Below, one piece after another: positions 1,772 through 46,418 of a DNA stretch of 64,000 bases. The stretch spans positions 5,847-69,846 of the forward strand of contig QHUJ01000121.1 in the NCBI GenBank assembly GCA_003221895.1, in the 5' to 3' direction. This DNA is from Gemmatimonadota bacterium (lineage in GTDB: Bacteria > Gemmatimonadota > Gemmatimonadetes > Gemmatimonadales > GWC2-71-9). The translations under genes were made by a program, and so were the position numbers. Under the pieces are notes generated by a model. That model worked only from the letters and a program-made list of their open reading frames with translations, made no database searches and was not told the DNA's origin. How positions within the stretch are numbered: position 1 is the first letter of the stretch; each line of letters opens with the position of its first letter.

Positions 1772-4300
1772 ATGACCGGTCCTAACGTCCGCGAACGCAT
1801 CGTCCCGCGCCTCATCGAAGACGAGCTGAAGGAATCGTTCCTCGACTACTCGATGAGCGTCATCGTGTCGCGCGCGCTGCCGGACGTGCGCGACGGCCTG
1901 AAGCCCGTCCACCGACGCATCCTCTACGCGATGAACGAGCTGGGTCTGGTGCCCGGCCGCCCCTATAAGAAGAGCGCGACCGTCGTCGGCGACGTGCTCG
2001 GCAAGTACCACCCGCACGGCGACGTGGCGTTGTACGACTCGCTGGTGCGCATGGTGCAGGACTTCTCGCTGCGCTACCCCCTGGTCGACGGGCAGGGGAA
2101 TTTCGGGTCGGTCGACGGCGACTCGGCTGCGGCGTACCGCTATACCGAAGCACGGCTCACGCGCGTCGCCATGACGATGCTGGAGGACATCGACAAGAAC
2201 ACCGTCGATTTCGTCCCCAACTACGACGACCGGCTGCAGGAGCCCACCGTCCTTCCGGGGCGGCTTCCGAACCTGATCGTGAACGGCTCGGCCGGCATCG
2301 CGGTGGGCATGACGACCAACATCCCGCCGCACAACCTGGGCGAAGTCGTCCAGGCAATCGTCCATCTCGTCGATCACCCCAATGCGACGATCAAGGACAT
2401 CCGGAAGTTCGTCAAAGGCCCCGATTTCCCGACCGGCGCGATCATCTACGGGCGCGACGGGATCAAGGAATGCTACGAGAAGGGTCGCGGGCGCATCATC
2501 ATTCGGGCTCGGGCGATTGTCGAAGAAAAGGAATCGAGCGGCAAGCAGCAGATCGTCGTGGCGGAGTTCCCCTATCAGGTGAGCCCCGAGCGGGTGCACG
2601 AGCAGATCCGCGACCTCGTGCTCGTCAAGAAGCTGGAGGGGATCAGCGACGTCCGCAATGAATCCGATAAAGAGGGGGTCCGGCTCGTCATCGAGCTGAA
2701 GCGCGACGCCATCCCGATGGTCGTGCTCAACCAGCTCTACAAGCACACGCAGATGCAGCAGACCTTCGGCGCCATCATGCTGGCGCTGGTGGACGGCGCG
2801 CCGAAGGAAATGACGCTGCTCGAGATCCTGCAGAACTTCATCGAGCACCGCCATACCGTCATCACGCGCCGCACCCAGTTCGAGCTGCAGCGCGCGCAGG
2901 ACCGCGAGCACATCCTCGAAGGCTTGAAGATCGCCGTCGACAACATCGACGAAGTGATCAAGATCATCAAGAAATCGAAGGACACGCCCAGCGCGGACGC
3001 AGCGCTGCGGAAGCGCTTCAAGCTGTCGGAAAAACAGTCAGCGGAAATCCTCAACATGCGTCTGGCGCGGCTCACCGCGCTCGAGATCACGAAGCTCGAG
3101 GAGGAGCTGAAAGACGTCCGCAAGTTCATCAAAGAGTGCAAGGAGATTCTCGCGTCCAAGCCGCGGCGCATGAAGATCCTGAAGGAAGAGCTGACCGAGC
3201 TCGCGCAGGGCTTCGGGGACGACCGGCGCACCGAGATCGTGGCGGATCAGGGCGAGTTCTCGATCGAGGATCTGATTGTCGAAGAGGACATGGTGATCAC
3301 CGTGTCCCACGCCGGCTACATCAAGCGGCTACCCGTGTCCGCGTACCGGCGCCAGCGGCGCGGCGGCAAGGGCGTGATTGCCTCGCACCAGAAGGAAGAC
3401 GACTGGGTCGAGCATCTCTTCATCGCGTCGACGCACGACTACGTCATGTTCTTCACCGAACAGGGCCAGTGCTACTGGCTCAAGGTGCACGAGATCGGGC
3501 AGGCGGCGCGATCCGCCCGCGGCAAGCCGATTCTCAGCTGCGTCGCGATGAAGCCCGACGAGCGGCTCGCGGCGTTGGTCCCGGTCCGCGAGTTCTCCGA
3601 GGATCAGTTCCTGCTCTTCGCCACGAAGGCCGGCGTCGTCAAGAAGACCGTGCTCTCGGAATTCGGCAACCCGCGCTCGGTGGGGATCCGCGCGATCAAC
3701 ATCGAGAAGGGCGACGAGCTCATCGACGTCCAGGTCACGGACGGCAAGAACGACATCGTGCTGGCGACCGCGCACGGCATGAGCATCCGTTTCCATGAGA
3801 AGGACGTGCGCGACATGGGACGCACGGCGACCGGCGTCAAGGGCATCGAGCTCGACAAGAAGGACCACGTCATCGACATGGTCGTCGTGCGCCGCAAGTC
3901 GACGCTGCTCACCGTGACTGAAAAGGGCATGGGCAAGCGCTCCGAGTTGGAGGAATACCGCGTCCAGCATCGCGGCGGCCGCGGCATCATCACGCTGAAG
4001 CGCGGCGACAAGACCGGCGAGATCATCGCGCTGAAAGAGGTGCTGCCCGACGATGAGCTGATGATGATCACCAAGAAGGGCATCATGATCCGCGTGCCGG
4101 TCGAGGGCATCCGGATCTCCGGCCGGAATACCCAGGGCGTCAAGATCATGAACCTGACCCCCGGCGACCTGGTGGTGGACGTCGCGCGTGTCGTCAAGGA
4201 AGACGAAGACCAAACGGTGGACGAGGACGAGGACGAGGCGTCTCCTCCGGCTACGGCGCCGAAGGCCAAGGCCAAGACGAAGGCGAAGGCGAAGAAGTAA
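1772..4300 (+). CDS. gyrA: DNA gyrase subunit A
   Basis: Carries the active-site Tyr context [10 protein letters not shown], plus [12 protein letters not shown] and a QRDR-like [12 protein letters not shown]. The C-terminal region has beta-pinwheel repeats. Length is 842 aa. Confidence 0.97.
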
Positions 4301-5238: not shown

Positions 5239-6674
5239 TGACCGGTCCCGCAACGCGAGTCCTGGTTGCCGACGACGACGCGTCGCTAGTCCAGACGCTG
5301 ACCTGGATCCTGAAGGAGAACGGATACGAGGTGGCCGTCTGTCCCGGCGGCGACGGGCTGTTTGCCAAGCTCGAAGAGATCAAGCCTGCCCTGCTGCTGC
5401 TCGACATCATGATGCCGAAGGTGGACGGGCTGCAGCTGCTCGAGCGGCTGAAACAGGACGAGCGCTACAAGGACTTACCGGTCCTTATGGTCTCGTCCAT
5501 GCCACCGGAAGAAGCGACCGTGCGCGCGCTGGGACTGGGCGCGGCCGATTTCATCTCGAAGCCGTTTCGCGTGCGCGAGCTGCTGGCACGCGTCGATGCG
5601 CACATCCGGGTAGGACGAGCGCTGGCACAGGCGCGCGAGGAGGCCCGCAGCCGCGCCGCGATGGTGGACATCCTGCACGAGGTCACGGACTCCCTCAAGC
5701 CCGACGAGATCTATCACATCCTCGTGCGTCGGGTGGCGCGCGCGCTCAACATCTCGAAGTGCTCCATGGTGCTCGCCAAACCGGGCGACCAACAGGGGGT
5801 CGTCGTCGCGGCCTACGAAAACCCGATGCTGCGCAACCTGCAGATCGAACTGGGCCGCTATCCGGAGATTCGCAAAGCCGTCTCGACGGGCCGGCTGGTG
5901 CTGGTCGAGGACGTCGCCACCGATCCGTTGTACGAAGACGAGCGTCGCCGCTGGGAGCGAGAGGACATCAAAGTCCCGACGCGCTCCGCGGTGGCACTGC
6001 CGTTCTGGATGAAAGATCAGCAGACCGGCGTGTTTTTCCTGCGCACCACCGGCGATGACCCGCCGCTCACCAAGGCCGATGCGCAGTTCTCCGAGACGGT
6101 CATCAAGACCGCGGTGTCGGCGATCGAGAAAGCCTACGACTTCGAGACCGCGGTCTCGGACAAGCAGCGGCTCGAGAAGCTGGCGGCGACGGATGCCCTC
6201 ACCGGTCTCACCAACCGGCGAGCGCTCGCCGAAGCGCTCGCCCAGGAGCTGGATCGCGCGCGGCGTTACAACCTGGCGCTCACGATCCTGCTCGCGGACA
6301 TCGACCGTTTCAAGTCGATCAACGACACGCGCGGCCACATCGCCGGCGACTCCGTGCTGCGGCAGATCGGCGAGCTGCTCAGGCGGGAAGCGCGGTCGGT
6401 CGACATCGTGGCGCGCTACGGCGGTGAGGAGTTCGTCATCGTCATGCCCGAGACCGCCCCGCACGGCGCGGCGATCTTCGCCGAGCGCCTGCGGCGGCGC
6501 GTGATGGCGCACGACTTCGCCGACCCGGGTGAGGATCCGCTCCATCTGACGGTCAGCATCGGGTTGGCGTCATTCCCCGACGACCGCGTGCACAGCGCCG
6601 ACAGCTTCGTCTCCCTTGCCGATCAGGCCCTCTATCGCGCGAAGAACGAAGGGCGCAACTTGGTCCGGCAATGA
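5238..6674 (+). CDS. Response regulator with REC-GAF-GGDEF architecture (diguanylate cyclase, apparently active)
   Basis: REC motifs are VADDD and LLLLDIMMPKVDG. A central GAF-like region follows. The GGDEF domain has an intact RYGGEEF and an I-site RSVD five residues upstream. Its start overlaps the previous stop (TGATG). Confidence 0.9.
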   Translation: MTGPATRVLVADDDASLVQTLTWILKENGYEVAVCPGGDGLFAKLEEIKPALLLLDIMMPKVDGLQLLERLKQDERYKDLPVLMVSSMPPEEATVRALGLGAADFISKPFRVRELLARVDAHIRVGRALAQAREEARSRAAMVDILHEVTDSLKPDEIYHILVRRVARALNISKCSMVLAKPGDQQGVVVAAYENPMLRNLQIELGRYPEIRKAVSTGRLVLVEDVATDPLYEDERRRWEREDIKVPTRSAVALPFWMKDQQTGVFFLRTTGDDPPLTKADAQFSETVIKTAVSAIEKAYDFETAVSDKQRLEKLAATDALTGLTNRRALAEALAQELDRARRYNLALTILLADIDRFKSINDTRGHIAGDSVLRQIGELLRREARSVDIVARYGGEEFVIVMPETAPHGAAIFAERLRRRVMAHDFADPGEDPLHLTVSIGLASFPDDRVHSADSFVSLADQALYRAKNEGRNLVRQ

Positions 6675-34601: not shown

Positions 34602-37283
34602 TTATCGATTCGGTCCTATCAAGATCGCATTCGTTAACAGCTTCGCCGGTCCCCGCCAAAAAGCCCGAAACAGCGGATCGCTCAAGAACACCACCACCCG
34701 GCCGCTGCCCTGATTCTCCACCGCAGCCCACGTCGATCCCTTGAGCAGCCGCGCGGTGTTGTCGGGCCACGTGAATCCTGAGAGCACCAGCGAATCTACC
34801 GGATCGCTGAAGGCGGCCGCGTTGGCGCCGCTCTTGGACGGCTTCCAGAACGTATCGCCGTCGATGAATACGGGCAGGCGGCTCCGGTCGTAGCCGAGCG
34901 TGAGCCAGTGTGTGGTATCGAGCGTCGCCCGGAAGATCGCGCCCGGAATCCATTCCAGGCGATCACGCGGAGGAGCTGTCGGAGAAAGGAGCGACGGCTC
35001 TGTGCCTGGTGCCGTCGTATCCGCCTTCGCGCCGCTATCGGGTCCAACAGCAGCGATCGTGGACAGGCCCACGTCTTTGTTGGCGGCCAGCAGACCGGCG
35101 CCACCATAGCCGATCAGGACACCACCGGATCGCACCCAGGCCTTGAGCTTCTCCACGCCATCGTCGCCCAGCTCACGGCGCATGCGGCCGCTGTTACCGT
35201 CCGGGATGATCAGCACATTGAAGCTCTGCAGGTCGTCCATCCGGCCAATCGCCCGTAGCGGGACCGGTGTAAACGGCGTGTTCAGCTCGCGCGCTAGGAA
35301 ATACCACAGCCAGCCATAGCTCGTTTCGTAGACACCGTCGCCGGCGCCGACCAGGATGGTCGGCGCATGGAGGGCAACCACCTCACCCGAACCGATTCCC
35401 ACGTCGGCGCTGTCTGGAAATGCCGTCTGCACGGGCGAGACCATGAGGCCGAGTGACGGGCCGAGGGCGGCAATGCGGTCGTGGAGCGCGGCACCGTTGC
35501 GCTGCGGCCGGGCTACGAACGTCCCGCGTGGGTAGGTACGGCCGGCAGCCTGAATGGGCCGGGTCGCGATGGCCAGCTTGAAGCCCTCGGCCTCGAGCGC
35601 GATTGCAAGCCGAGCGGCACCGGGCTGCTCGTTGGAGAAGACGTATGCGGTCGCGGCCCGCGCCGGCGCCGGCGGCGCCGGCGGCACCGTGTCGGTCACC
35701 GCGTCGCCGCCCGCGCCGGCGTCTTCGGTCCAGTACGCGTCGAGATTGAACGACAACGGCAACGACCACGCCGTAATGTCGTAGAAGCCGTAGTCCTCTT
35801 TGTCGGCATCTTCGCCGCGGCGCCGGTTGCGCTGAAATTTGGCGACCTCACGATCGACGAAGGTGCGCTGTAGCTCCGCCTCCGGCTCGAGCAACGTCTT
35901 GGCGATGCGGCGTTGCGGCTGATTCAAATCGATGACATAGCTTCCCGCCGGGAATGAGCGTGCCGTTCCCGGGCGGCGGGGACTCAGATAACTGTGGGCG
36001 GCGCGTGAGGCGAGCGGCTGGCGCAGTCGCGTGACTTCGATGCCGTTGCGCAGCAGCAGTCCGACGACGTGCATCGCCGACTGCGGATCGTTGCCGGGAA
36101 CGATCACCACGCGCTTGAGACGATCCGTCGCTGCTTCCGTCATGGCCGAGCGGCGAAATTCGTAGTAGTCCTGCAGCCGGCTCTGGCGGTTTTTGGCGGT
36201 CGTCTCGAGCGTCGCGAGCGAGGCGACGAAGTGGTGGGCGATGCCGTCGCGAAACGTGGTGATCGAGCCGTCGTCGCGGCGCTTGCGGAACTCCGGCCCT
36301 CCGTCCGTCTCGTACGTCATCCCAGTGGCGCCCTGGAAGGTGGACCATTCGTCCCAGTAGCCGACGTAGAAGAAGTCGAAGATGCCCCGCACGAAATACT
36401 GCCAGCCGTACTTGTCGAAGGCCGCCGCATTGCCCCTGCCGTACGTGTCGAACCACTTCGTCGTCTGAGCCGGCAGGTTCATGTTCACCGCCTGCGCGAC
36501 CGGCGGGAAGAAGAAGTTCGGGGTCGTCGAGTGATGGTCCACGAACACCTGCGGATGCCAGCGCAAAATCCCATCCATCATGGCGCGCACTTCCGGCTGG
36601 CTCTGCGCCACGAGATCGCGGTTCATGTCGAAGCGGAAATGGCTGTAGCGCCCCGTGATGCTCCACGGCTCGTTCTGCTCGAACGCCCAGGGATGATCGG
36701 CGCCCACGGCCACCGAGTTGTACCAGGCGGAGAACCGCTCGTGGCCATCGGGATTGGCCGATGGATTGAGCACGACGACCACCGACTTGAGAATCTCGAG
36801 CGTCTGCGGCTCGTCGGACGCGGCCAGCTGGTAGGCGACCTGCATCGCGGCCTCGAAACCGGCCGGCTCGTCACCGTGCACCGAGTACTGGAATAGCGCG
36901 ATCGCCGGCGACTGCGCCGCAATCGTCGCGGCCTGTGCGGGCGATGTTTTGCGCGGGTCAGCCAGCGATCCAATCTGGGCTCTGATCTGATCGAGCTTGG
37001 CGAGGTTTGCGGGATCGGAGATGATCAGGGCCCGGATCGGCCTGTATTCCGTCGTCCTGCCCCAGGTCTCAATGCGCACGCGATCACTCGCCGTCGCCAC
37101 GAGGGTGTCGAGATAGTGTTGCATCACTGCGTACATCGTGTGCTGGTCGCCGGCCGCGTATCCGGTAATCGCCTCGGGGCGGGGGACCGCGGCCCGATAG
37201 GGGCCGCGGGAGTAGAAGTCGAACGGCTCCTGGGCAGCAAGAGGGCCCACCAGGACCAACGCGACGAGGAGAGCCGGGCGCAT
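34602..37283 (-). CDS. M14-family zinc carboxypeptidase-like protein with a large C-terminal extension, secreted
   Basis: Signal peptide is MRPALLVALVLVGPLAAQ. The zinc motif is VHGDEPAG, with a downstream HH at VDHHS. Length is 893 aa. Confidence 0.75.
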   Translation of the reverse strand: MRPALLVALVLVGPLAAQEPFDFYSRGPYRAAVPRPEAITGYAAGDQHTMYAVMQHYLDTLVATASDRVRIETWGRTTEYRPIRALIISDPANLAKLDQIRAQIGSLADPRKTSPAQAATIAAQSPAIALFQYSVHGDEPAGFEAAMQVAYQLAASDEPQTLEILKSVVVVLNPSANPDGHERFSAWYNSVAVGADHPWAFEQNEPWSITGRYSHFRFDMNRDLVAQSQPEVRAMMDGILRWHPQVFVDHHSTTPNFFFPPVAQAVNMNLPAQTTKWFDTYGRGNAAAFDKYGWQYFVRGIFDFFYVGYWDEWSTFQGATGMTYETDGGPEFRKRRDDGSITTFRDGIAHHFVASLATLETTAKNRQSRLQDYYEFRRSAMTEAATDRLKRVVIVPGNDPQSAMHVVGLLLRNGIEVTRLRQPLASRAAHSYLSPRRPGTARSFPAGSYVIDLNQPQRRIAKTLLEPEAELQRTFVDREVAKFQRNRRRGEDADKEDYGFYDITAWSLPLSFNLDAYWTEDAGAGGDAVTDTVPPAPPAPARAATAYVFSNEQPGAARLAIALEAEGFKLAIATRPIQAAGRTYPRGTFVARPQRNGAALHDRIAALGPSLGLMVSPVQTAFPDSADVGIGSGEVVALHAPTILVGAGDGVYETSYGWLWYFLARELNTPFTPVPLRAIGRMDDLQSFNVLIIPDGNSGRMRRELGDDGVEKLKAWVRSGGVLIGYGGAGLLAANKDVGLSTIAAVGPDSGAKADTTAPGTEPSLLSPTAPPRDRLEWIPGAIFRATLDTTHWLTLGYDRSRLPVFIDGDTFWKPSKSGANAAAFSDPVDSLVLSGFTWPDNTARLLKGSTWAAVENQGSGRVVVFLSDPLFRAFWRGPAKLLTNAILIGPNR

Positions 37284-37313
37284 GACAGTCCTTCAGAACG
37301 AATGTTGGCCGAG

Positions 37314-37359
37314 CCCACCCTTCAGGGTGGGAATGGACAGAGCCCACCCTGGAGGGTGG
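37314..37359. repeat. Two tandem copies of a short palindromic unit (REP-like or terminator-like) downstream of the kinase gene
   Basis: The units are CCCACCC-TTCA-GGGTGGG (37314-37331) and CCACCC-TGGA-GGGTGG (37344-37359). Each is preceded by GAGC or AGAGC. No U-tract follows on the minus strand. Confidence 0.5.
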
Positions 37360-37362
37360 AGA

Positions 37363-39282
37363 CTACCGACGCCGCGCTGCCGGTAGCGCTTGGTCGAAAG
37401 AAGCGAACTCGAAGGGCTTGGGAACGCAAGGCCGGCCGGTGCCGTCGAGGAAACGCTTCATCTGCTCGTTCACGAGGTCGCCGGTCGTGAAAATCACTCG
37501 CTCCGCGTGGCCGGGGTCGCCGCTGCGGAGTCGCTCGTACAGTTGCTCACCGGAAAGGTCGGGCATGCGCATGTCTACGATGACGGCATCGTATTTCGCG
37601 TCGCGCAGGCGCACGAGGGCATCCTCGCCGCTGGCCGTCGTTTCGACGTGATGCCCGCGACCCGCCAGGTACCGCTGCAGCGAGACGCGCACGGATGCCT
37701 CGTCGTCTACGACCAGGACCCGAAGGCTGTCGTTCCCGCTCGCCGCCTGCACGTGTGTGATCGCCGGCATTTCTCCCGACGTCCGTGCTTGGATGATCGG
37801 CAGCTCCACGATAAAGCGCGCCCCGCTCGACGCCACGTTCTCGGCCCAGATCCGGCCCTCGTGCTCGCGCACGATGCCGAGGGAGATCGAGAGGCCGAGC
37901 CCCGTGCCCGAGCCGGTCGGCTTGGTCGTGAAGAACGGATTGAAGATCCGCTCGATGAGGTTCGCCGGTATGCCGCCGCCGGTATCCTCGACCTCGATGC
38001 GAACCGCCTCGCCGTTGCGGCGCGTGCGGACGGTCAACCGGTGGTGGTGGCCGTCGCGCTGCTCCATCGCCTGCTCGGCGTTCGTGATGAGGTTGAGGAA
38101 GACCTGCTGCAGCTGGTGCGCGTCCGCCATCGTGTCGGCGAGGCTGTCGTCGTACTCGCGGCGCACGTCAATGCCGCGCACCCGGAGCTCATAGCCGCGC
38201 AGCTCCAGCGTGTCGTCGAGCACCTGGTTGATCGAGGTCGGGACCTTCTCGGCTTTGTGCTGGCGCGCAAACGTCAGCAGGTTCTGCACGATGCGGCTGG
38301 CGCGGCGGGCTTCGCTGTAAATCGTCTCCGCCGCCGTGCGCTGGTCGGGCGGGAATTTCTTCTCCGCCAGCAGCAGCTGGGCGAACGCCGAGATACCGGC
38401 CAGCGGGTTGTTGAGCTCGTGCGCGACGCCGGAGACGAGCTGCCCGATCGCGGACATCTTCTCCGACTGGATGAGCTGTTCCTGGAGCATCTTCTGGTCG
38501 GTGACGTCGCGAATGAGGCAGAGCACTTCCTCGTCCTTCTGCGGCGTCGAGTAGGTGATCGAGATGGTGCGGACTTCGCCGTCCTTGCGGTAGAACTGCG
38601 AGTCGAACAGCCCGGTCTCGCCGGCCAGTGCCTGCTGGAAGTGGCCGAGCGCCTTTGGCAGGTCGTCGTCGGGGAGCATGGGCGCGAACCACTGCCCGAC
38701 CAGCTCCTCGCGCTTGTAGCCTGAGATGTTTTCCGCGGCGTGGTTCACGGTGGTGAAGCGGCCATTCGCGTCGAGCGTCACGATCGCGTCGGACGCGGAT
38801 TCGACGAGGTGGCGGTAGCGGGCCTCGGAGCGCGCCAGTGTTTCTTGAGCGCGTTTCGGATCGGTGACGTCCCGCAGCGTGGCGACCGTGCCGATCAATT
38901 CACCGTCGACCCGGAAGGGTCCGCTCGACACCGCCACGTCGCGCTCTTCTTTCGTGCGGTGATTGAGGACGCGTGTTTCGTAGCGCTGTGGCTCACCGGC
39001 GAGGACCTTGTCCTCGCGTGCGGCGACGTGGTTGCGCTCACTCGGAGAGACCTGATCGGCTATGGCCTGCCCGACGATATCGGTGACGGTCCAGCCCAGC
39101 AGCTCGGCACCGGCTTCATTCGCGGCCAGCACTCGCCGGTCTGTCCCCGTCACCACCATCGCGTCCGGTAGGGCGGCCACGATGTCCGCTGCCGCCTGCA
39201 GCAGATCGAGCCGCGCGCGCTTCGGCGGAGCGGTGGTAGGGCGGGTAACCCGCGCGGGCGAAACGCGGCGAGCCTTACTCAC
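37363..39282 (-). CDS. Cytoplasmic hybrid sensor histidine kinase (2x PAS, HisKA, HATPase, REC)
   Basis: The H-box is SGVAHELNNPL. N and G boxes are NLITNAEQA and DTGGGI...GTGLGLS. The C-terminal REC has VLVVDDE and VIVDMRMPDLSG. A GTG start overlaps the upstream stop (GTGA). Confidence 0.9.
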   Translation of the reverse strand: MSKARRVSPARVTRPTTAPPKRARLDLLQAAADIVAALPDAMVVTGTDRRVLAANEAGAELLGWTVTDIVGQAIADQVSPSERNHVAAREDKVLAGEPQRYETRVLNHRTKEERDVAVSSGPFRVDGELIGTVATLRDVTDPKRAQETLARSEARYRHLVESASDAIVTLDANGRFTTVNHAAENISGYKREELVGQWFAPMLPDDDLPKALGHFQQALAGETGLFDSQFYRKDGEVRTISITYSTPQKDEEVLCLIRDVTDQKMLQEQLIQSEKMSAIGQLVSGVAHELNNPLAGISAFAQLLLAEKKFPPDQRTAAETIYSEARRASRIVQNLLTFARQHKAEKVPTSINQVLDDTLELRGYELRVRGIDVRREYDDSLADTMADAHQLQQVFLNLITNAEQAMEQRDGHHHRLTVRTRRNGEAVRIEVEDTGGGIPANLIERIFNPFFTTKPTGSGTGLGLSISLGIVREHEGRIWAENVASSGARFIVELPIIQARTSGEMPAITHVQAASGNDSLRVLVVDDEASVRVSLQRYLAGRGHHVETTASGEDALVRLRDAKYDAVIVDMRMPDLSGEQLYERLRSGDPGHAERVIFTTGDLVNEQMKRFLDGTGRPCVPKPFEFASFDQALPAARRR

Positions 39283-39956
39283 GCGTAATAAGAAGCCTCC
39301 ATCGAGTGTTTCATCAGCTTGAGACTATCGAGCGCGACCTTCGTGACTTGCTCGGGCGTGTCGGTACCCCGTTTCACGCAGTCCTTGATGATCTCGAGCG
39401 CATGGATGGGGTGCTCATCGTCGTACTTCGCGTGTTCCTCGAGCCACCAGCGGCCCCGCGGCCCGATCCTCTCGTTCTTGGCGAGGCCCCGTAGCGCCTT
39501 CTCGGAAATCTTCTGGGCGACACCCTCGACGGCATAATTCGTCGCCGACACCGCCTGCCCGAACTCCGCGTTGCGGCACATCTCGGTCAGGTAGGCGTGG
39601 AATTTCTTGACCTCCGGAAGCATCGGCTCGGGCTCCTGGAACCGCTTCTTGTGAACGTTGAAACCGTCGCCCATGGCACGCCACATCGCGTCGTGGCGCC
39701 GCTCCACCCGGATGTTGTCGGTGAAAAACGACTTTCCCATGGACGGTGAGCGGTCCAGCAGCACCTGCAGCCATTGTGGGAAGTCACGGATAATGGGATA
39801 GAAGGCGACGAGGAAGTTCTGGATCTGCCCATCGACGAGCTGGTTCTCAGAAGCATCAACGATGACTGGCGTGTCGAGGATAGCCTGACGGTTAGGCTCT
39901 AGGGTGGCGTCCAGCTCCGCCACCCAGGTGGGGTGGGGCGTCACTTGCACAGCCAT
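39279..39956 (-). CDS. Heme-oxygenase-like fold, putative diiron (HDO / CADD / PqqC-like iron-containing redox enzyme family) protein
   Basis: The ATG at 39956 follows GGAGAGGAG. Candidate ligand motifs are RVERRH, NYAVEG, and an H-x3-D-x2-H (HAKYDDEH). FYPIIRDFPQWL is typical of this fold. Confidence 0.6.
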   Translation of the reverse strand: MAVQVTPHPTWVAELDATLEPNRQAILDTPVIVDASENQLVDGQIQNFLVAFYPIIRDFPQWLQVLLDRSPSMGKSFFTDNIRVERRHDAMWRAMGDGFNVHKKRFQEPEPMLPEVKKFHAYLTEMCRNAEFGQAVSATNYAVEGVAQKISEKALRGLAKNERIGPRGRWWLEEHAKYDDEHPIHALEIIKDCVKRGTDTPEQVTKVALDSLKLMKHSMEASYYA

Positions 39957-40143
39957 TGCTGCTCCTCTCCGAGGGCGCGGGGGGGGCCTGAAGCACGGGT
40001 CCGGCGTGGGTGGAATGTATGAATGGGACCACAACATGCAAGCTCAAGCCGGATCGTGACTTGGCACACAACGTTAGGACGATGGGGTTGACAAGATATA
40101 TCGTCCAAGAATATCGTGGCGTAACATCTAACATGAGGCGGAG

Positions 40144-40707
40144 ATGGGCGGGAAGTTCGGCTGGGAGGGGTTCGGTTTTGCGTTCGGTCCGCGCGCGTGG
40201 GGGTTCCGCGCCGGTCGCGGCGGGCATCGCAGGCGGCAGTGGTTCGGCGCCGGCGACATGAAGTACGTCATCCTGAAGCTGTTGCGGGACAAGCCACGTC
40301 ACGGCTACGAAGTCATGAAGGAGTTGGAGGAGCGGATGCACGGGTGCTATTCCCCATCGCCTGGCACCGTTTATCCCACGCTGCAATGGCTCGAGGACGA
40401 AGGTCTCGTGGTGGGGCGTGACGTCGACGGCAAGAAGGTCTACGAAATCACCGACACAGGACGGACTTTTTTGGACGAGAACAAAGACACCGTCGAAGAC
40501 ATCTTCGATCGAGTGCGCGAGACGGTCGAGCGGACCGTGGGTGGCTCGATGGTCGAAGTGAACCGCGCCCTTGGGCAGCTGGTAAAGACGGTTTACCGCA
40601 CGGGCTGGAAGGCCAGTGACGAAGCGCGCAAGCGCGTCGCCGAAGCGCTCGCCAAGGCTACGGCGGAGATTGAGGCACTAGCAAAAGGTCCTGAAAGTCA
40701 AAGCTGA
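40144..40707 (+). CDS. PadR-family transcriptional regulator with a Gly/Trp/Arg-rich N-terminal extension
   Basis: The winged helix is ILKLLRDKPRHGYEVMKELEER...GTVYPTLQWLEDEGLV. The alternative start at the ATG at 40258 would remove the extension. Confidence 0.8.
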   Translation: MGGKFGWEGFGFAFGPRAWGFRAGRGGHRRRQWFGAGDMKYVILKLLRDKPRHGYEVMKELEERMHGCYSPSPGTVYPTLQWLEDEGLVVGRDVDGKKVYEITDTGRTFLDENKDTVEDIFDRVRETVERTVGGSMVEVNRALGQLVKTVYRTGWKASDEARKRVAEALAKATAEIEALAKGPESQS

Positions 40708-42238
40708 AGTCGGTCGCCGGTGACACGGGGACCATCTTCACCTGATCGATGGATCCATCCGGCTTGAGCGCGAAGCTGACGTAGGCGTCGGCGCGCAGCT
40801 CGCGGTCGCGCCACCGCGCGATGAATGTGTCGTACTGGAAGTGCACGAGATCTCCGGTGAGCGATGGTGAGTGGGAGAACCGCATCACCAGCTTGCCGGA
40901 CTCGAGCGCGATGGTCACATCGCCGTACCAGGCATCACGGTAGGTTCCCGCATACTTCTCGAGTGCCAGCGATGGTCGCGAAGTGCTGTCTCGCTTCGCG
41001 ACCGCGCTGCGCTCCTCGGCCTGAATCGCGGAATCGCCGCGAGCTTTGACCACCTTGTACGCGGCGGCCCAATCCGTCGGCGCGGCGCCCAGGAAATGAT
41101 CGAGCAACCGCCAGCTGATTGCCTCGAACGCCTCCCCTGACTCCTGGTTCGTCAGCACGGCGACGCCGAGCTTCTTGTCCGGAATCAGCGATATGCGCGA
41201 GACGTAACCGGGCAGCCCACCGGTGTGCCACACCATCTTGGAGCCCCGATAGTCGCGCAGAAAAAACCCGAGCCCATATCCCGTGAAGCTCGCCCTGAGC
41301 GCGGCGAGCTCGGCCGGCGGGTTGCCTGGCCGCAACGGCGTCACGACGGACCAGAGATTCCGCGCGGTGTTTTGAGAGAACAGCCGGCCGCTGGCGAGGC
41401 GGCCGGAGTCGAGCTGCACGATCATCCATTTCGCGATGTCAGTTGCGCTCGAGTTGATGCCACCCGCCGGGTTGGTATTGTCGCTCGCGAATGGCGCGAC
41501 GGGCCGCACTGTGCCGTCCACAGGTGCATGCGGCGTCGCGACGTTGCCGCCGGCCGCTGACGCTGAATGACGCACGCTGCTCCCCGTCATCCCAATCTTC
41601 GCGAGAATTCTCGACTGGACGAACTCTTCCCACGTCTGGCCGGACACCGTTTCGATCACTTCACCCGCGACCCCGTAGAGCACGTTGTCATAGGCGAATG
41701 CGCTGCGGAAACTCGTGGCCGGCTTGATGAAGCGGAGCCGCCTGGCGATCTCCTTGCGGTCGTACGTCGACGTCGGCCACCACAGCAGGTCGCCGGCGCC
41801 GAGGCCCAGGCCACTGCGGTGCACGAGCAGGTCGCGGATGGTGAGCTCGCGGGTGACGTACGGATCGTACATCGCGAACCACGGCAGGTAGTCGATCACG
41901 GGGGCGTCCCACCGGAGCTTGCCGTCCTCAACCAGGATGCCGAGGGCGGTGGCGGTAAACGCCTTCGTATTCGACGCGATGCCGAAGAGCGTCTTGTCGT
42001 CGACGGGAGCAGGATCGCCCAGCTTGCGGACGCCGTAGCCTTTGGCGAGCAGTACGCGGCCATCTTGCACGACGGCGATCGCGAGGCCGGGGACTTCGAA
42101 ATCGCGCATCACGCGGGCGACGTACGCGTCGAAATCGCGGGGTACGGCAGTCGGTGATCCGGCGCGTTGCGCCGGCAACTCCGCCGCGCCGAGGCTCAGG
42201 ACGGCCGCCACAAACAGCGCTGGAATGGGTGTGTTCAT
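40658..42238 (-). CDS. Serine hydrolase of the class-C beta-lactamase / penicillin-binding protein family, secreted
   Basis: Start was chosen at the ATG at 42238, which gives the signal MNTPIPALFVAAVLSLGAAELPAQ. It has S-x-x-K (ASNTKAF) and Y-x-N (AYDNV). Its 3' end overlaps PadR by 50 nt. Confidence 0.8.
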   Translation of the reverse strand: MNTPIPALFVAAVLSLGAAELPAQRAGSPTAVPRDFDAYVARVMRDFEVPGLAIAVVQDGRVLLAKGYGVRKLGDPAPVDDKTLFGIASNTKAFTATALGILVEDGKLRWDAPVIDYLPWFAMYDPYVTRELTIRDLLVHRSGLGLGAGDLLWWPTSTYDRKEIARRLRFIKPATSFRSAFAYDNVLYGVAGEVIETVSGQTWEEFVQSRILAKIGMTGSSVRHSASAAGGNVATPHAPVDGTVRPVAPFASDNTNPAGGINSSATDIAKWMIVQLDSGRLASGRLFSQNTARNLWSVVTPLRPGNPPAELAALRASFTGYGLGFFLRDYRGSKMVWHTGGLPGYVSRISLIPDKKLGVAVLTNQESGEAFEAISWRLLDHFLGAAPTDWAAAYKVVKARGDSAIQAEERSAVAKRDSTSRPSLALEKYAGTYRDAWYGDVTIALESGKLVMRFSHSPSLTGDLVHFQYDTFIARWRDRELRADAYVSFALKPDGSIDQVKMVPVSPATDFSFDFQDLLLVPQSPP

Positions 42239-42479
42239 GAGGCGCACAAAGCTGCCTGCCGCCTTGGTGATGCGGAAGTGTCGCGATGCTGCTCGAACGT
42301 TAGAAGAGAATTAACGAAGCCAGACCCAGACCGTGGACTTCGGCGATCGGTTGTCCATCGATATCGCGCACCTCACCGCGTACAGTGCTTATCCCGGTTA
42401 TCCCGATTGGGCCGGAGGGGAACGGGAAGAAGAACCCATGCGATGACGACGCCGCGGAGGATGTACCGCATTGCAAGTA

Positions 42480-43469
42480 CTACACGTCTAGACCAGGCGT
42501 GGTTCTGCGGTCGCGCAACTGCTGTAGCGCACGAGAGACATATACTCGAGTCATCTGCTTGCGCCACGAGAGATCGAAATCGGTGTTGTCCATCGGCTTG
42601 GACGGACGGTAGGCCTCCTCCGCGGCTGCGGCGATCGATTCGTCGGAGAGCGCCCCTCCCCTGAGCGCGGTACCCGCCTCCGGAACCTCCTGCGGATAAC
42701 TGGCGACGCCGCCCAGCACGATGCGGGCATCGGCGACCGTCTTCCGATTCCACTGTATCCAGACCGCGACGCCGAGCACGGGAAAATCAAAGGAGCCGCG
42801 ACGCCGCAGCTTATGGTAGACGGCGTCCCAGCCGTTCGGCTTTGGGATCCTCACGTCGACCAGGATTTCGTCGGGCTGTTTCGTCAGATAGTTGATCCCG
42901 TCGTTGTGATAGAACCGCCCGGCGGGCACCACGCGCTCGCCCTGTGGGCCGAGCAAGCGGTACTCGGCACCGATCGCAACCATCACCGGAGCCACGTCGG
43001 ACGAGCTGACCGCCCAGCAGCGCGGTGAGGACGGTGCCACCCAGCAGATGTGGCCGTCCTTCTTCATGCAAAAGTCGATTGATTTCCGCCACTCATACGT
43101 CTGGTTGTAGTAGTTGCAGCGGGTATCGAGGCAGAGATTGCCGCCGAGCGTGCCCATGTTGCGGAGCAACGGGGTGGAAACGAGCCGAGCGGCGGTGGAT
43201 ACTGCGGCGGTCAGGCGGTCAGGCGGTCGGGCGGTCAGTTCACTCAGCGTGAGACATGCGCCGAGCGTTGTACTTTCGACGCGCCGCAGCTCCGGAATGC
43301 CCATCAGCGAGATCACCGTCTTCGGCTCCTGATGGCGGCGCTTCATGTTGGGATAGAGGTCGGTGCCCCCGGCGACGAACATGGCGTCCGGCCCGGCGTC
43401 CGCCTTCATCCGAAGCGCGTCAGCGAGTGACTTCGGTTCGAGATAGGTGAAGAAAGGGAGGCGCAGCAC
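42480..43469 (-). CDS. FAD-binding (medium) subunit of a xanthine-dehydrogenase-family molybdoenzyme, HcrB-like with an extra Cys cluster
   Basis: The GTG at 43469 overlaps the large-subunit stop (TAGTG). The FAD motif is FVAGGTDLYPNMK. The inserted cluster is C-x4-C-x15-C-x7-C-x8-C (NLCLDTRCNYYNQ...FCMKKDGHICWVAPSSPRCW). Only the last 329 aa of the 853-aa track ORF are taken as real. Confidence 0.8.
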   Translation of the reverse strand: MLRLPFFTYLEPKSLADALRMKADAGPDAMFVAGGTDLYPNMKRRHQEPKTVISLMGIPELRRVESTTLGACLTLSELTARPPDRLTAAVSTAARLVSTPLLRNMGTLGGNLCLDTRCNYYNQTYEWRKSIDFCMKKDGHICWVAPSSPRCWAVSSSDVAPVMVAIGAEYRLLGPQGERVVPAGRFYHNDGINYLTKQPDEILVDVRIPKPNGWDAVYHKLRRRGSFDFPVLGVAVWIQWNRKTVADARIVLGGVASYPQEVPEAGTALRGGALSDESIAAAAEEAYRPSKPMDNTDFDLSWRKQMTRVYVSRALQQLRDRRTTPGLDV

Positions 43470-45901
43470 TAGTGTGGCCGCTCCGCGGTAATAGCCGGTC
43501 GGCCGGGGCTGACTGCCTTTCCGTCCCCACCCTCCCACGGTGTGGGGACTCGCATGGGCTCCGGCCAGGGGATATCCGGAAAGCTCTCCGGACCGTGCCG
43601 CCCGGGCTCGCCTTTCTGCTTTTTCCGCAATGCCTTCAGCACCTTCTCGGGGGTGATCGGGACCTCGTCGATCCGCACGCCGACCGCGTCGTAGACCGCA
43701 TTGGCGACCGCCGGCATCACCGGCAGCAGCGGTCCCTGGCCCACTTCCTTCGCACCAAACGGGCCGTTGGGATCGGGGTCCTCGACCAGATACGTGATGA
43801 CATCGCACATCTCGAGCGTGGTGGGGCTCTTGTACTCGAGCAAGCTCGGGATCTTGTGCACGACGTTGCGGTTGCCGCGGTACGCCATCTCCTCCATCAG
43901 CGCCTCGCCGAGGCCCATGTAGATCGAGCCTTCGACCTGCCCGATGACAGCAGCCGAGTTGATCGAGCGGCCCACATCGTGCGCGATCCAGATCGTCGGG
44001 ACGCGCACAATGCCTGTCTCGGGATCGACGTCCACTGCGGCGACGCAGGCGCTGTACGAGTACGCCGGCGACGGGCCGACGCCGGCGCCGCGATATTTCC
44101 CCGCGCTCATCGGGGGCGTGTAGGAGCCCACGGTCCCAATCGTCCCCTCGGCCGCTTCCGCTGATTGGACGGCTTCCGCAAACGACATCCCGCGTTTGGG
44201 ATCCTTCGCGTCGTAGACGCGACGCTCCGCGAACGACAGCCGGTCGACCGGGATCTCGAGCTTCTTCGCGGCGTGAACGGCGAGGATCTGCCGTGCTCGC
44301 TCGGCCGCCTGCAGCGCGGCGTTGCCGCTCATGAGGGTTACGCGACTCGAGTAGCTGCCGAGATCGACCGGAGTCAAATCGGTGTCGCCAGTGACCACCG
44401 CGATATCGAAGGGATCGATGCCAAGCACTTCGGCCACGATGTAGGCGAGAATCGAATCGGACCCCTGCCCGATCTCCGTCGAGCCACAGAAGACCGTGAC
44501 GCCGCCGCCGCGGTCGCATTTCAGCTGCACGCCCGAATGCGGCATGTTGTTCCAGTAGATCGGCAGGCCGGCGCCGGAGATGTAACTCGAGCACGCGAGC
44601 CCCACGCCCCGCCCGCGCGGCAGCTTGCGGAACTTCTGCTTCCACCCCGAACCCTCGACAACTTTCGCGATGCACTTGCCGAGGCCCATCGATCCGACGC
44701 GCAGGTAGTTTGCGGTGAGTGAGTTGGCCGGCACGAGCGTCTTGAGACGCAGCTCGGCCGGATCGATTCCGAGCTGCTCGGCGATTTTGTCGATATGCAC
44801 TTCGAGCGCAAAACGCGGCTGCGGCGTGCCGTGCCCGCGCTTGGGCCCGCAGGGTGCCTTGTTGGTAAACGCGCGCGCCCCCTGGAAGTGATAGCACGGG
44901 ATGTGGTACGTCACGGTCTGCAGCGCGCCCGTGTAATACGTGCTCGCGACCCCGTACGACCCGTAGGCGCCGCCGTCGAGCAATGACCGGAAATGCATGC
45001 CGGTGATCGCACCGTCTTTCTTCACGCCGGTCCGCACCCACATCAGCGTCGGATGACGCCCGCGATGACAGTAGAAGACTTCCTCGCGGGTCAGCGTGAT
45101 TTTCACGGGCCGTCCCGTGATCATCGCGAGCTTCGCAACCGCGATCTCATGGTTGAAGGGGTCGCTCTTGCCGCCGAAGCCCCCACCGTTGGGAGTTGCG
45201 ATGACGCGAATGCGCGCCGCTGGCAGCTCCAGAACCTTGGCCAGCGCGCGATGCACGTAGTGGGGCGTTTGCGTCGACGTCCACAGCGTGAGCTTTTGAT
45301 CCGGCGACCACATCGCGACGGCGGCATGCTGCTCCATCGGGAGGTGCGTACTCCCTTCGAAGAAGAAGAGATCCTCCCGCACCATGTCGCCCTCGGCGAT
45401 GCCGGCGTTGGCATCGCCGAACTCCAGATCGATGAGTTTGTGGAAGTTGCCGCGGTCGCCGTAGTCGTGAATACGCGGCTCAGGGTGCTCGACAGCTTCC
45501 TCGGCTGAAGCGATGGATTTCAGCGGCTCGTAATCGACCCGGATCAGGTCGGTGGCTGCGGTGGCGGCTTCTTCCGTGAGGGCGGCAACGGCTGCGACAG
45601 GGTCGCCGATGAACCGAGCTTTGTCGATGCAGAGGGCATGCTCGTCCTGCGACACGGGGAGGATGCCGAACGGAATAGGTAGGTCCTGCCCGACGAGCAC
45701 CGCCTGAACCCCATCGAGCTTCGCTGCCGCAGATGTGTCGATGGAGACGATACGTGCGTGGGGTTGTGTGCTACGCAGGAGCTTGCAGAATAGCATGCGC
45801 GGGAACGCGAGGTCGTCGGCGAATTTCGTCGCGCCAGTAACCTTTGCTGCCGCGTCAACCTTGCGAAGCGCTTTCCCGATCACCCTGCGCTTATCTGCCA
45901 T
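43469..45901 (-). CDS. Molybdopterin-binding (large) subunit of a xanthine dehydrogenase / aldehyde oxidoreductase-family enzyme
   Basis: Start was chosen at the ATG at 45901 (MADKRRVIGKALRKVDAAAKVTG). It has an a/b-hammerhead followed by Moco-binding domains (GGGFGGK, a GxEIGQG-type STEIGQGS). About 810 aa. Confidence 0.88.
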   Translation of the reverse strand: MADKRRVIGKALRKVDAAAKVTGATKFADDLAFPRMLFCKLLRSTQPHARIVSIDTSAAAKLDGVQAVLVGQDLPIPFGILPVSQDEHALCIDKARFIGDPVAAVAALTEEAATAATDLIRVDYEPLKSIASAEEAVEHPEPRIHDYGDRGNFHKLIDLEFGDANAGIAEGDMVREDLFFFEGSTHLPMEQHAAVAMWSPDQKLTLWTSTQTPHYVHRALAKVLELPAARIRVIATPNGGGFGGKSDPFNHEIAVAKLAMITGRPVKITLTREEVFYCHRGRHPTLMWVRTGVKKDGAITGMHFRSLLDGGAYGSYGVASTYYTGALQTVTYHIPCYHFQGARAFTNKAPCGPKRGHGTPQPRFALEVHIDKIAEQLGIDPAELRLKTLVPANSLTANYLRVGSMGLGKCIAKVVEGSGWKQKFRKLPRGRGVGLACSSYISGAGLPIYWNNMPHSGVQLKCDRGGGVTVFCGSTEIGQGSDSILAYIVAEVLGIDPFDIAVVTGDTDLTPVDLGSYSSRVTLMSGNAALQAAERARQILAVHAAKKLEIPVDRLSFAERRVYDAKDPKRGMSFAEAVQSAEAAEGTIGTVGSYTPPMSAGKYRGAGVGPSPAYSYSACVAAVDVDPETGIVRVPTIWIAHDVGRSINSAAVIGQVEGSIYMGLGEALMEEMAYRGNRNVVHKIPSLLEYKSPTTLEMCDVITYLVEDPDPNGPFGAKEVGQGPLLPVMPAVANAVYDAVGVRIDEVPITPEKVLKALRKKQKGEPGRHGPESFPDIPWPEPMRVPTPWEGGDGKAVSPGRPAITAERPH

Positions 45902-46418
45902 ATAGCGACTCGGTCGTGGGTTCTGCTTTTTCCCCCCGCATCCGGGCGGCTGCGAGCTCCACCGCCTCGTAGATCTTGATGTAGCCGGTGCAGCGGCAGA
46001 GGTTGCCGGCGAGCGCGTCCTTGATCTCTTCACGTGTCGGCTTCGGATTGGCGGCGAGCAGGGCTTCAGCGGCTAGCAGGAAGGCCGGGGTACAGTAGCC
46101 GCACTGCGCCGCGCCGAGGTCTGCGAACGTGTCCTGGAGCGGATGGAGTTTGCCGCCCTGCGCCATGCCTTCCACGGTGCGCACCGTGCGGCCGGCGCAC
46201 GCGAGACCCAGCACGAGGCAGGAAAGCACCGGTGTTCCGTCGAGTAACACCGTGCATGTGCCGCACTCGCCCAGCTCGCAGCCATGCTTCGTTCCTGTCA
46301 GCCCGAGATCCTCCCGCAGCACCTCAAGCAGCGTCTTGTGCGGCGCGAACGCGATCTCGGTCGGCTCGCCGTTCACGGCAAGCGCGATCTTGACCTTCGA
46401 TTCGGAAGTCATGGTCAC
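45891..46418 (-). CDS. [2Fe-2S]-binding (small) subunit of the same molybdoenzyme
   Basis: Has a plant-type cluster (CELGECGTCTV) and a second cluster (QCGYCTPAF...NLCRCTGY). Confidence 0.92.
   Translation of the reverse strand: MTMTSESKVKIALAVNGEPTEIAFAPHKTLLEVLREDLGLTGTKHGCELGECGTCTVLLDGTPVLSCLVLGLACAGRTVRTVEGMAQGGKLHPLQDTFADLGAAQCGYCTPAFLLAAEALLAANPKPTREEIKDALAGNLCRCTGYIKIYEAVELAAARMRGEKAEPTTESLYGR

Follow-up and report, generated by a model that had tools for sequence, protein, structure and literature searches.

A UndA-like diiron oxidase gene overlapping a soluble PAS hybrid kinase gene in Gemmatimonadales: a candidate signalling operon

The window analysed here is a stretch of 64,000 nt from a Gemmatimonadota bacterium (assembly GCA_003221895.1, contig QHUJ01000121.1, positions 5,847 to 69,846) with a G+C content of ~65%. 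Its nearest relatives are all metagenome-assembled genomes (MAGs) of Gemmatimonadales from soil, and all matches of our scan are MAG records. Within this window, we investigated three neighboring genes that had been singled out in a preliminary description made from the sequence alone, and an open reading frame (ORF) listing confirmed all three with unchanged coordinates. On the minus strand, a gene for a 225-aa UndA-like diiron oxidase of the heme-oxygenase-like type (HDO; 39279–39956) is followed by a gene for a 639-aa soluble hybrid histidine kinase of the architecture PAS1-PAS2-HisKA-HATPase_c-REC (37363–39282). The two genes share four nucleotides: the TGA stop codon of the HDO gene lies at 39279–39281 and the GTG start codon of the kinase gene at 39280–39282, which results in a GTGA overlap at 39279–39282 (minus strand). 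A gene for a PadR-family regulator of 187 aa (40144–40707, plus strand) is transcribed divergently. The start codon of the HDO gene is supported by the Shine-Dalgarno sequence GGAGAGGAG (39962–39970, minus strand), located 5 nt upstream of the ATG, and by the lengths of the homologues (222–226 aa); AGGAG is conserved in an alignment of 63 PadR-HDO intergenic regions.

The only Pfam family matched by the HDO is PF14518 (Haem_oxygenas_2, “iron-containing redox enzyme”; E = 3.3e-15, 56.8 bits against a cut-off of 28.9). The six-ligand pattern, E-x2-H in core helix 1, E in core helix 2 and H-x3-D-x2-H in core helix 3, is complete: the motifs RVERRH (E85, H88), NYAVEG (E144) and HAKYDDEH (H175, D179, H182) align with RVELNH, NYAIEG and HAQYDDAH of UndA (HMMER against 4wwj and 6p5q; E ~1e-12). 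Both the class of the protein and its six ligands, as first proposed, are therefore confirmed. All six positions are invariant across 19 HDO orthologues, and in the orthologue alignment the mean column identity is 81% and high over the whole length. The ligands are also kept in nearly all of 46 aligned sequences spanning the clades described below, with deviating positions in a few representatives (e.g., P0177, P0216 and P0150).

Of the solved structures, those of Pseudomonas UndA (4wwj, 6p5q and 3oql; E ~1e-12) match best in sequence, while Chlamydia CADD is matched far more weakly, at E ~6e-5. An AlphaFold2 model based on the 19 orthologues (pLDDT 92.7, pTM 0.90) contains 11 helices and adopts the all-helical heme-oxygenase-like fold. 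In a Foldseek search, this model superposes on UndA with a TM score of 0.85 and on CADD with 0.83, ahead of TenA and PqqC structures. Its least confident block, residues 171–180 (pLDDT 79) with a helix break at 179–180, coincides with the H-x3-D-x2-H helix. In HDOs, core helix α3 refolds upon iron binding, the Asp ligand shifts by ~7 Å, and the cofactors are unstable (PMC7848743); for UndA, a peroxo-diferric intermediate triggered by the substrate is reported as part of the reaction (PMC7848743). The preliminary description had likened the protein to HDOs of the CADD/SznF type, but the closest relative is UndA and not CADD or SznF. CADD, described as a p-aminobenzoate (pABA) synthase in PMC13232832 and as a protein of unknown function in PMC7848743, shares fold and ligands with our HDO, whereas the locus in the window has no folate-pathway context.

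Models of related families do not claim the protein: it scores 26.7 bits against the CADD model TIGR04305 (cut-off 200), the TenA/thiaminase II/PqqC model PF03070 gives no match at E ≤ 0.01, and pqq genes are absent from all loci inspected. The automatic names “PQQ biosynthesis protein C” and “TenA family transcriptional regulator” given to this family are unsupported by domain, ligand and context evidence. Judged by its sequence, the HDO belongs to the UndA branch, with all ligands present, but is not an UndA orthologue, since the identity to UndA of ~21–22% is below orthologue level; it is also ~35 aa shorter (225 aa compared to UndA chains of 262–263 aa). All HDOs characterised so far that have these six ligands are enzymes (PMC7848743; PMC13232832), and the HDO of the window is probably catalytically active as well, using Fe(II) and O2.

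In the adjacent kinase, Pfam detects two PAS stretches, HisKA, HATPase_c and Response_reg; the sensory part consists of PAS domains only, without GAF or PHY. PAS1 (residues ~35–145; PAS_4/PAS) is encoded at 38848–39180 and PAS2 (residues ~154–264; PAS_4 at residues 160–264) at 38491–38823. The HisKA and HATPase_c core with the H-box SGVAHELNNPL follows at 37795–38445 and the C-terminal REC domain with the conserved residues DD...D...T...K (PF00072, E = 1.2e-17) at 37390–37719, all on the minus strand. The maximum Kyte-Doolittle hydropathy over 19 residues is 1.49, so no membrane span is evident, and we classify the protein as a soluble hybrid histidine kinase of the two-component type, in agreement with the cytoplasmic 2xPAS-HisKA-HATPase-REC kinase described previously. 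The H-box AHELNNPL and the REC residues including the acceptor Asp are conserved in 75 kinase orthologues, and conservation by domain is highest for HisKA (0.96) and PAS2 (0.90), followed by HATPase_c (0.83), REC (0.80) and PAS1 (0.69). PAS2 is a candidate binding site, either for a ligand or for the HDO. A comparison of PAS1-PAS2 with solved structures gave weak structural-genomics matches only (E ~2e-4), which are uninformative on a cofactor.

A scan of one genome per species yielded 106 loci, 80 of which were kept, all from Gemmatimonadales. The triad of PadR, HDO and kinase is present in 80 of 80 loci wherever the contig reaches, and a kinase orthologue lies directly downstream of the HDO gene in 79 of the 79 loci with sufficient contig. 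Across loci, orthologues are 74–94% (HDO), 71–95% (kinase) and 61–93% (PadR) identical. An RTGA overlap with the kinase in frame is found in 76 of the 79 loci, 38 times as GTGA and 38 times as ATGA; these equal halves indicate that the coupling survives turnover of the start codon. The translational coupling originally read from a single GTGA is confirmed. Soil metatranscriptome contigs cover the HDO gene and one contig of 225 nt spans the HDO-kinase junction, which is weakly consistent with co-transcription of both genes. No response-regulator or Hpt gene is present in the core of the conserved module.

The genes flanking the pair are gained and lost, as seen for M14 peptidase, beta-lactamase-family and Big_2 genes. 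The M14 peptidase gene is gone from most of loci L041–L080 and kept there only in L043 and L046, which places it outside the conserved module. A beta-lactamase-family gene beside padR occurs in eleven of the 80 loci, all within L001–L040, and therefore represents a lineage-specific insertion. In the loci inspected among L041–L080, a convergent PDZ gene follows the kinase gene. The wider region is a syntenic part of the core genome, with xanthine-dehydrogenase-like genes on one side and PDZ, anti-sigma and ECF sigma genes on the other.

In the window itself, a gene for an 893-aa secreted M14 zinc carboxypeptidase (34602–37283, minus strand) starts 80 nt downstream of the kinase gene. We detected no convincing terminator on the 3′ side of the kinase gene, and the M14 peptidase gene could be co-transcribed in this window. 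A beta-lactamase-family gene with a DUF3471 domain (40658–42247, minus strand) is convergent with padR, and the 3′ ends of both genes share 50 nt (40658–40707). Genes for a xanthine-dehydrogenase/CO-dehydrogenase-like molybdoenzyme (FAD_binding_5 and MoCoBD subunits; 42480–46033, minus strand) also flank padR, likewise in loci L081 and L084.

Two further records were considered and rejected. P0091, a protein of 386 aa with HDO and PAS matches, might have been taken for a natural fusion, but its sequence jumps from HDO residue ~195 into kinase residue ~97 and contains errors in the ligand motifs, indicative of an assembly or deletion artefact. P0086 (locus L081), labelled “Candidatus Rokuibacteriota”, would have been an occurrence outside the order; its contig shows Gemmatimonadales synteny, so the label probably reflects mis-binning and the locus is not independent evidence.

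The divergent regulator belongs to the PadR family, as stated before (PF03551; E = 1.4e-22, 79.9 bits against a cut-off of 27). Ahead of its winged helix lie ~36 additional N-terminal residues (MGGKFGWEGFGFAFGPRAWGFRAGRGGHRRRQWFGAGD; 40144–40251) with many Gly, Phe, Trp and Arg, which are conserved in L041–L080 too; we know of no function for this extension. Within the 63 aligned intergenic regions, the most conserved stretch is a block of ~41 bp beside the padR start, GATGTTACG..ACGATAT..ACGATATATCTTGTCAA, at 40088–40128. A consensus scan identified a padR promoter-like sequence, TTGACA-18-TATCGT, at 40088–40117 on the plus strand (10 of 12 matches), and an inverted repeat GGACGAT/ATCGTCC is located at 40077–40106. 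Since this promoter lies inside the conserved block, the block is a plausible PadR autoregulatory operator. For the HDO-kinase pair, the putative promoter TTGCAT-N16-TACATT (40014–40041, minus strand), ~60 nt upstream of the HDO start, corresponds to a TTG...TAcATT pair that is conserved in the alignment across both sub-clades of Gemmatimonadales. This promoter was not called by a strict consensus scan and was proposed from its conservation. An Rfam scan of 37000–41000 matched no family, hence no riboswitch or leader RNA was detected. We presume a regulatory role of PadR at this locus; its linkage to the pair is specific to the Gemmatimonadales lineage.

Beyond this order, an exhaustive search by profile across 1.84 billion representative proteins retrieved no more than 231 relatives of the HDO at E ≤ 1e-3. 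Among full-length relatives from beyond the Gemmatimonadales cluster, the nearest (E 1e-51 to 1e-38) have an N-terminal PilZ domain fused to the HDO domain. This family comprises ~249 proteins from MAGs labelled Nitrospiraceae or Deltaproteobacteria; the fusions keep the HDO ligand motifs intact, and the PilZ motifs RxxxR and DxSxxG for binding of cyclic di-GMP (c-di-GMP) are visible in the sequences inspected. On three of three long contigs, with differing flanks, the PilZ-HDO gene is followed on the same strand by a gene for a HisKA_7TM-GAF-HisKA-HATPase_c kinase (L086, 7001–11226; L088, 7001–11394; L089, 7001–11552). The same arrangement occurs in ~10 further loci, and one such kinase also has a REC domain. 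In L086, the kinase gene is followed by genes for a sigma54-type response regulator and a REC-HD(HD_5) protein. Among the best 150 of the 231 relatives, we found no HDO-kinase fusion protein.

A third, broader clade emerged from metagenome contigs scanned with an alignment of HDOs. Its most conserved neighbor is a divergent gene for a membrane GGDEF diguanylate cyclase, found in 16 loci with otherwise variable flanks. Four of these 16 were checked by exact-sequence look-up and belong to Acinetobacter including A. baumannii (L108, L114, L125 and L128); the gene pairs are located at 3246–5720 in L108, 3399–5717 in L114 and 3421–5723 in L125. The HDOs of these last three loci are 248–250 aa long and automatically annotated as “TenA family transcriptional regulator”, and the pair adjoins aroC and a prmB-like gene. 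The N-terminal ~230 aa of the polytopic-membrane GGDEF cyclase have no Pfam match. In an Alcanivoracaceae locus, a GGDEF gene lies 27 nt downstream of the HDO gene. Another twelve loci (L101, 2812–5708, and ~11 similar marine loci) carry the HDO gene directly downstream of a DUF58-TgpA (transglutaminase) pair, without a signalling neighbor, which is a different setting for the same HDO branch; L101, the only one of them looked up, is Alcanivorax by exact match. Overall, a kinase or GGDEF neighbor is present in roughly 20 of the ~35 third-clade loci with long flanks, which we infer to be far above the few percent expected from the frequency of such genes.

Two loci connect these arrangements to UndA itself. 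The HDO encoded in L165 (4971–8560) matches the Pseudomonas UndA structures at E = 1e-73 to 1e-79 and is a true orthologue of UndA; 63 nt further downstream, the locus encodes a 916-aa protein with a transmembrane segment (TM) and the domain order TM-PAS-PAS-GGDEF-EAL. In L166 (4983–8646), a short ORF with HisKA only (5831–6463) separates the gene of an UndA-like HDO from a downstream kinase gene. The N-terminal TM-periplasmic-TM-PAS part of this kinase aligns collinearly with its homologous counterpart in the L165 protein (E = 4e-14 over ~350 residues), whereas its output consists of HisKA-HATPase-REC instead of GGDEF-EAL. Homologous modules with different outputs indicate that it is the sensor module, and not the output domain, which travels with the HDO.

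For UndA, a role in signalling has been described: deletion of undA in P. fluorescens MFE01 impairs biofilm maturation, which is restored by wild-type volatiles or by pure 1-undecene (PMC10614000). With reference to Rui et al. 2014, its authors add that in genomes of Pseudomonas undA invariably occurs in association with rbdA, a gene of the PAS-GGDEF-EAL type. The paper only proposes a receptor link between UndA and RbdA, and the test of RbdA is described as planned (PMC10614000). The adjacency of undA and rbdA is thus already on record, and left unexplained in that account. Taking all lineages together, there are at least five unrelated contexts in which HDOs of the UndA branch have a kinase or a c-di-GMP enzyme as neighbor.

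These data bear directly on the preliminary description. A search with the PF14518, TenA, PqqC and CADD models left PF14518 as the only match, so the HDO falls into neither the TenA nor the PqqC clade. The adjacency of HDO and kinase genes, first noticed at one locus, is conserved in Gemmatimonadales and recurs with other kinases and with c-di-GMP enzymes in unrelated lineages. The earlier remark that no characterised HDO-kinase pair came to mind is in line with our literature search, which turned up no paper connecting HDOs with histidine kinases, PilZ or diguanylate cyclases, but it overlooked undA-rbdA as reported in PMC10614000, which is a partial precedent. PMC7848743, a paper on HDOs, mentions neither kinases nor sensors. 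According to PMC13232832, DtpC, an HDO of A. baumannii, has a part in desiccation and oxidative stress; no HDO had been linked to stress protection before, all studied members being small-molecule enzymes. We found no paper describing PilZ-HDO fusions, HDO-GGDEF pairs of Acinetobacter or an HDO with translational coupling to a histidine kinase.

We consider it very probable that HDO and kinase are functional partners of some kind, because the overlap is under selection, the pair remains unbroken while the flanks change, and the association recurs in at least five unrelated contexts. As to the nature of this partnership, we tentatively favor, at slightly less than an even chance, the reading that the HDO uses O2 and iron to make a small hydrophobic ligand sensed by the kinase. 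The two genes would then form an operon dedicated to signalling, next to a PadR regulator peculiar to the lineage. From an intracellular metabolite, most likely lipid- or fatty-acid-like, the UndA-like diiron oxidase would form a small hydrophobic product. The soluble kinase coupled to it in translation would detect this product, probably via PAS2, and its autophosphorylation and phosphotransfer to its own receiver domain would change. PadR would repress its own promoter and may also control the operon. Both the nature of substrate and product and the function of PAS2 as the receptor are inferred. A product could form only where O2, iron and substrate are at hand, so the pair would read out these conditions or serve as a circuit that makes its own signal.

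A pair of ligand synthase and receptor is favored by several observations. The only characterised relative is an enzyme whose product signals, the known six-ligand HDOs are catalysts, the sensor module travels together with the HDO, and PAS2 is under strong constraint. A conserved adjacency of HDO and sensor protein, as expected for such a pair, is found in 79 of 79 Gemmatimonadales loci as well as in other lineages. Compared to undA-rbdA, the pair in the window has the same HDO fold and six ligands, and again a small stand-alone protein is encoded beside a PAS-containing signalling protein. The partner of UndA is a membrane GGDEF-EAL protein, whereas that of the HDO is a soluble histidine kinase with a REC domain; the 4-nt gene overlap, the attached PadR and the occurrence in uncultured Gemmatimonadales also set the window pair apart. 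In the RpfF-RpfC and RpfF-RpfR systems of the diffusible signal factor (DSF), as well as in CqsA-CqsS, the synthase of a fatty-acid-derived signal is encoded beside a hybrid kinase or PAS-GGDEF-EAL receptor. Those synthases are crotonase or pyridoxal-phosphate enzymes and not diiron oxidases, and their receptors are mostly membrane proteins.

Some of our observations weigh against a ligand made by the HDO. The sensor domains of the partners differ by lineage (soluble PAS, 7TM-GAF or a polytopic membrane domain), so that a protein-protein partner accounts for them no less well than a shared ligand would. Genes overlapping tightly by 4 nt point to co-production in stoichiometric amounts, which matters more for a complex than for a diffusible ligand. 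With an identity to UndA of only ~21–22%, the chemistry of the HDO may be quite different, and even for UndA and RbdA the receptor link is a proposal (PMC10614000). Furthermore, the synteny of the wider Gemmatimonadales region implies that part of the conservation is due to vertical inheritance.

The heterogeneity of the sensors and the stoichiometric coupling lead to the main alternative mechanism, which we regard as possible but unlikely: the HDO could be a direct sensor subunit that docks onto the kinase, whose switching would follow the state of the HDO's labile diiron site (apo, Fe(II)2, oxidised, or O2/NO-bound). This pattern of a small protein gene upstream of and overlapping a kinase gene resembles H-NOX/HnoK and NosP/NahK, in which a small stand-alone gas sensor is co-cistronic with a kinase and elsewhere has a diguanylate cyclase or phosphodiesterase as its partner, just as relatives of the HDO adjoin diguanylate cyclases or phosphodiesterases. 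H-NOX and NosP share this gene pattern with the HDO but are heme proteins of unrelated folds. In Bhr-DGC and DcrH, the state of a hemerythrin diiron center controls c-di-GMP or chemotaxis signalling; these sensors have another, four-helix fold and are fused to their output, whereas the HDO is a separate protein. A direct sensor would also agree with unrelated sensor domains in partners of different lineages whose HisKA/HATPase cores are 37% identical, with the conservation of the HDO over its whole length and with the PilZ fusions, which suggest a regulatory adaptor. The unstable cofactors and iron-driven α3 refolding of HDOs (PMC7848743) point in the same direction, the weakest stretch of our model being located at H175/D179.

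If so, HDOs of the UndA branch would include a stand-alone diiron sensor class not recognised before, reading O2, Fe(II) or NO, a third one beside H-NOX and NosP, but we think this improbable. By the same account, which we likewise doubt, the HDO would directly gate kinases and diguanylate cyclases, and the PilZ fusions would integrate c-di-GMP in addition. No HDO is known as a sensor and the characterised members are all enzymes; fusions of HDO and kinase are absent among the best 150 of the 231 relatives; and UndA, the closest characterised relative, is a true enzyme with a signalling product (PMC10614000).

Alternatively, HDO and kinase could be co-transcribed but functionally unrelated, the HDO being a metabolic or protective enzyme (for a cofactor, lipids or oxidative stress, as proposed for DtpC) that shares a promoter with the kinase. 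In favor of this, the whole region is syntenic in Gemmatimonadales, the twelve Alcanivorax-type DUF58-TgpA loci and other loci lack a signalling neighbor, and DtpC of A. baumannii shows that an HDO can act in desiccation and oxidative stress (PMC13232832). However, flanks vary while the pair and its overlap never break, kinases or c-di-GMP genes are adjacent in at least five unrelated contexts, and signalling neighbors in ~20 of ~35 third-clade loci exceed, by our estimate, the few percent expected. We hold a pairing without functional link to be quite improbable.

Still more improbable is that the HDO is the regulated output, with the kinase, for example through its phosphorylated REC domain, binding the HDO and controlling its activity, and with c-di-GMP taking this role via PilZ in the fusions. 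A model for such control is provided by the Rpf systems, in which the receptors RpfC and RpfR also bind the DSF synthase RpfF and restrain it. The terminal REC domain of the hybrid kinase together with the lack of an Hpt or response-regulator gene in the conserved module would fit, and so would the REC-HD(HD_5) gene downstream in one PilZ-HDO locus. The fusion of a PilZ input domain, with RxxxR and DxSxxG kept, to the HDO also suggests that the activity itself is controlled. But a small partner encoded ahead of the kinase is what one would rather expect of an input protein, and the sensing role of the PAS domains would be left unexplained. This control is compatible with the synthesis of a ligand by the HDO and does not exclude it.

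The preliminary description had also noted an echo of bphO-bphP. There, the gene of a helical, O2-dependent enzyme with the heme-oxygenase fold immediately precedes a kinase gene, and BphO supplies the input of the kinase BphP. The analogy holds for the layout, but the enzyme of the window is of the diiron type and not a canonical, heme-degrading heme oxygenase, and its kinase lacks the GAF-PHY photosensory core. CADD is said to act on protein-derived residues, so protein side chains would be possible HDO substrates. A maturation of this kind, in which a PAS domain holds the HDO product, tightly or covalently, as its prosthetic group or the HDO oxidises a residue of the kinase, would suit the bphO-bphP-like layout and the stoichiometric coupling, but we regard it as very improbable given plain PAS domains without GAF and PHY, closest solved PAS relatives that are uninformative, and partners in other lineages entirely without PAS.

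Thousands of HDOs have no known function, and the characterised ones are all biosynthetic enzymes (PMC7848743, PMC13232832). If a branch of HDOs is systematically connected to two-component and c-di-GMP signalling, these proteins would acquire a function in sensing or in communication between cells. With several independent gene pairs at hand, one can now ask what perceives 1-undecene and why, as recorded in PMC10614000, undA adjoins rbdA; among these pairs, the A. baumannii relative beside a membrane diguanylate cyclase offers a genetically tractable model. A direct diiron sensor, although less likely, would be the more novel outcome. For the abundant, uncultured Gemmatimonadales of soil, the pair points to a signalling input that depends on O2 and iron.

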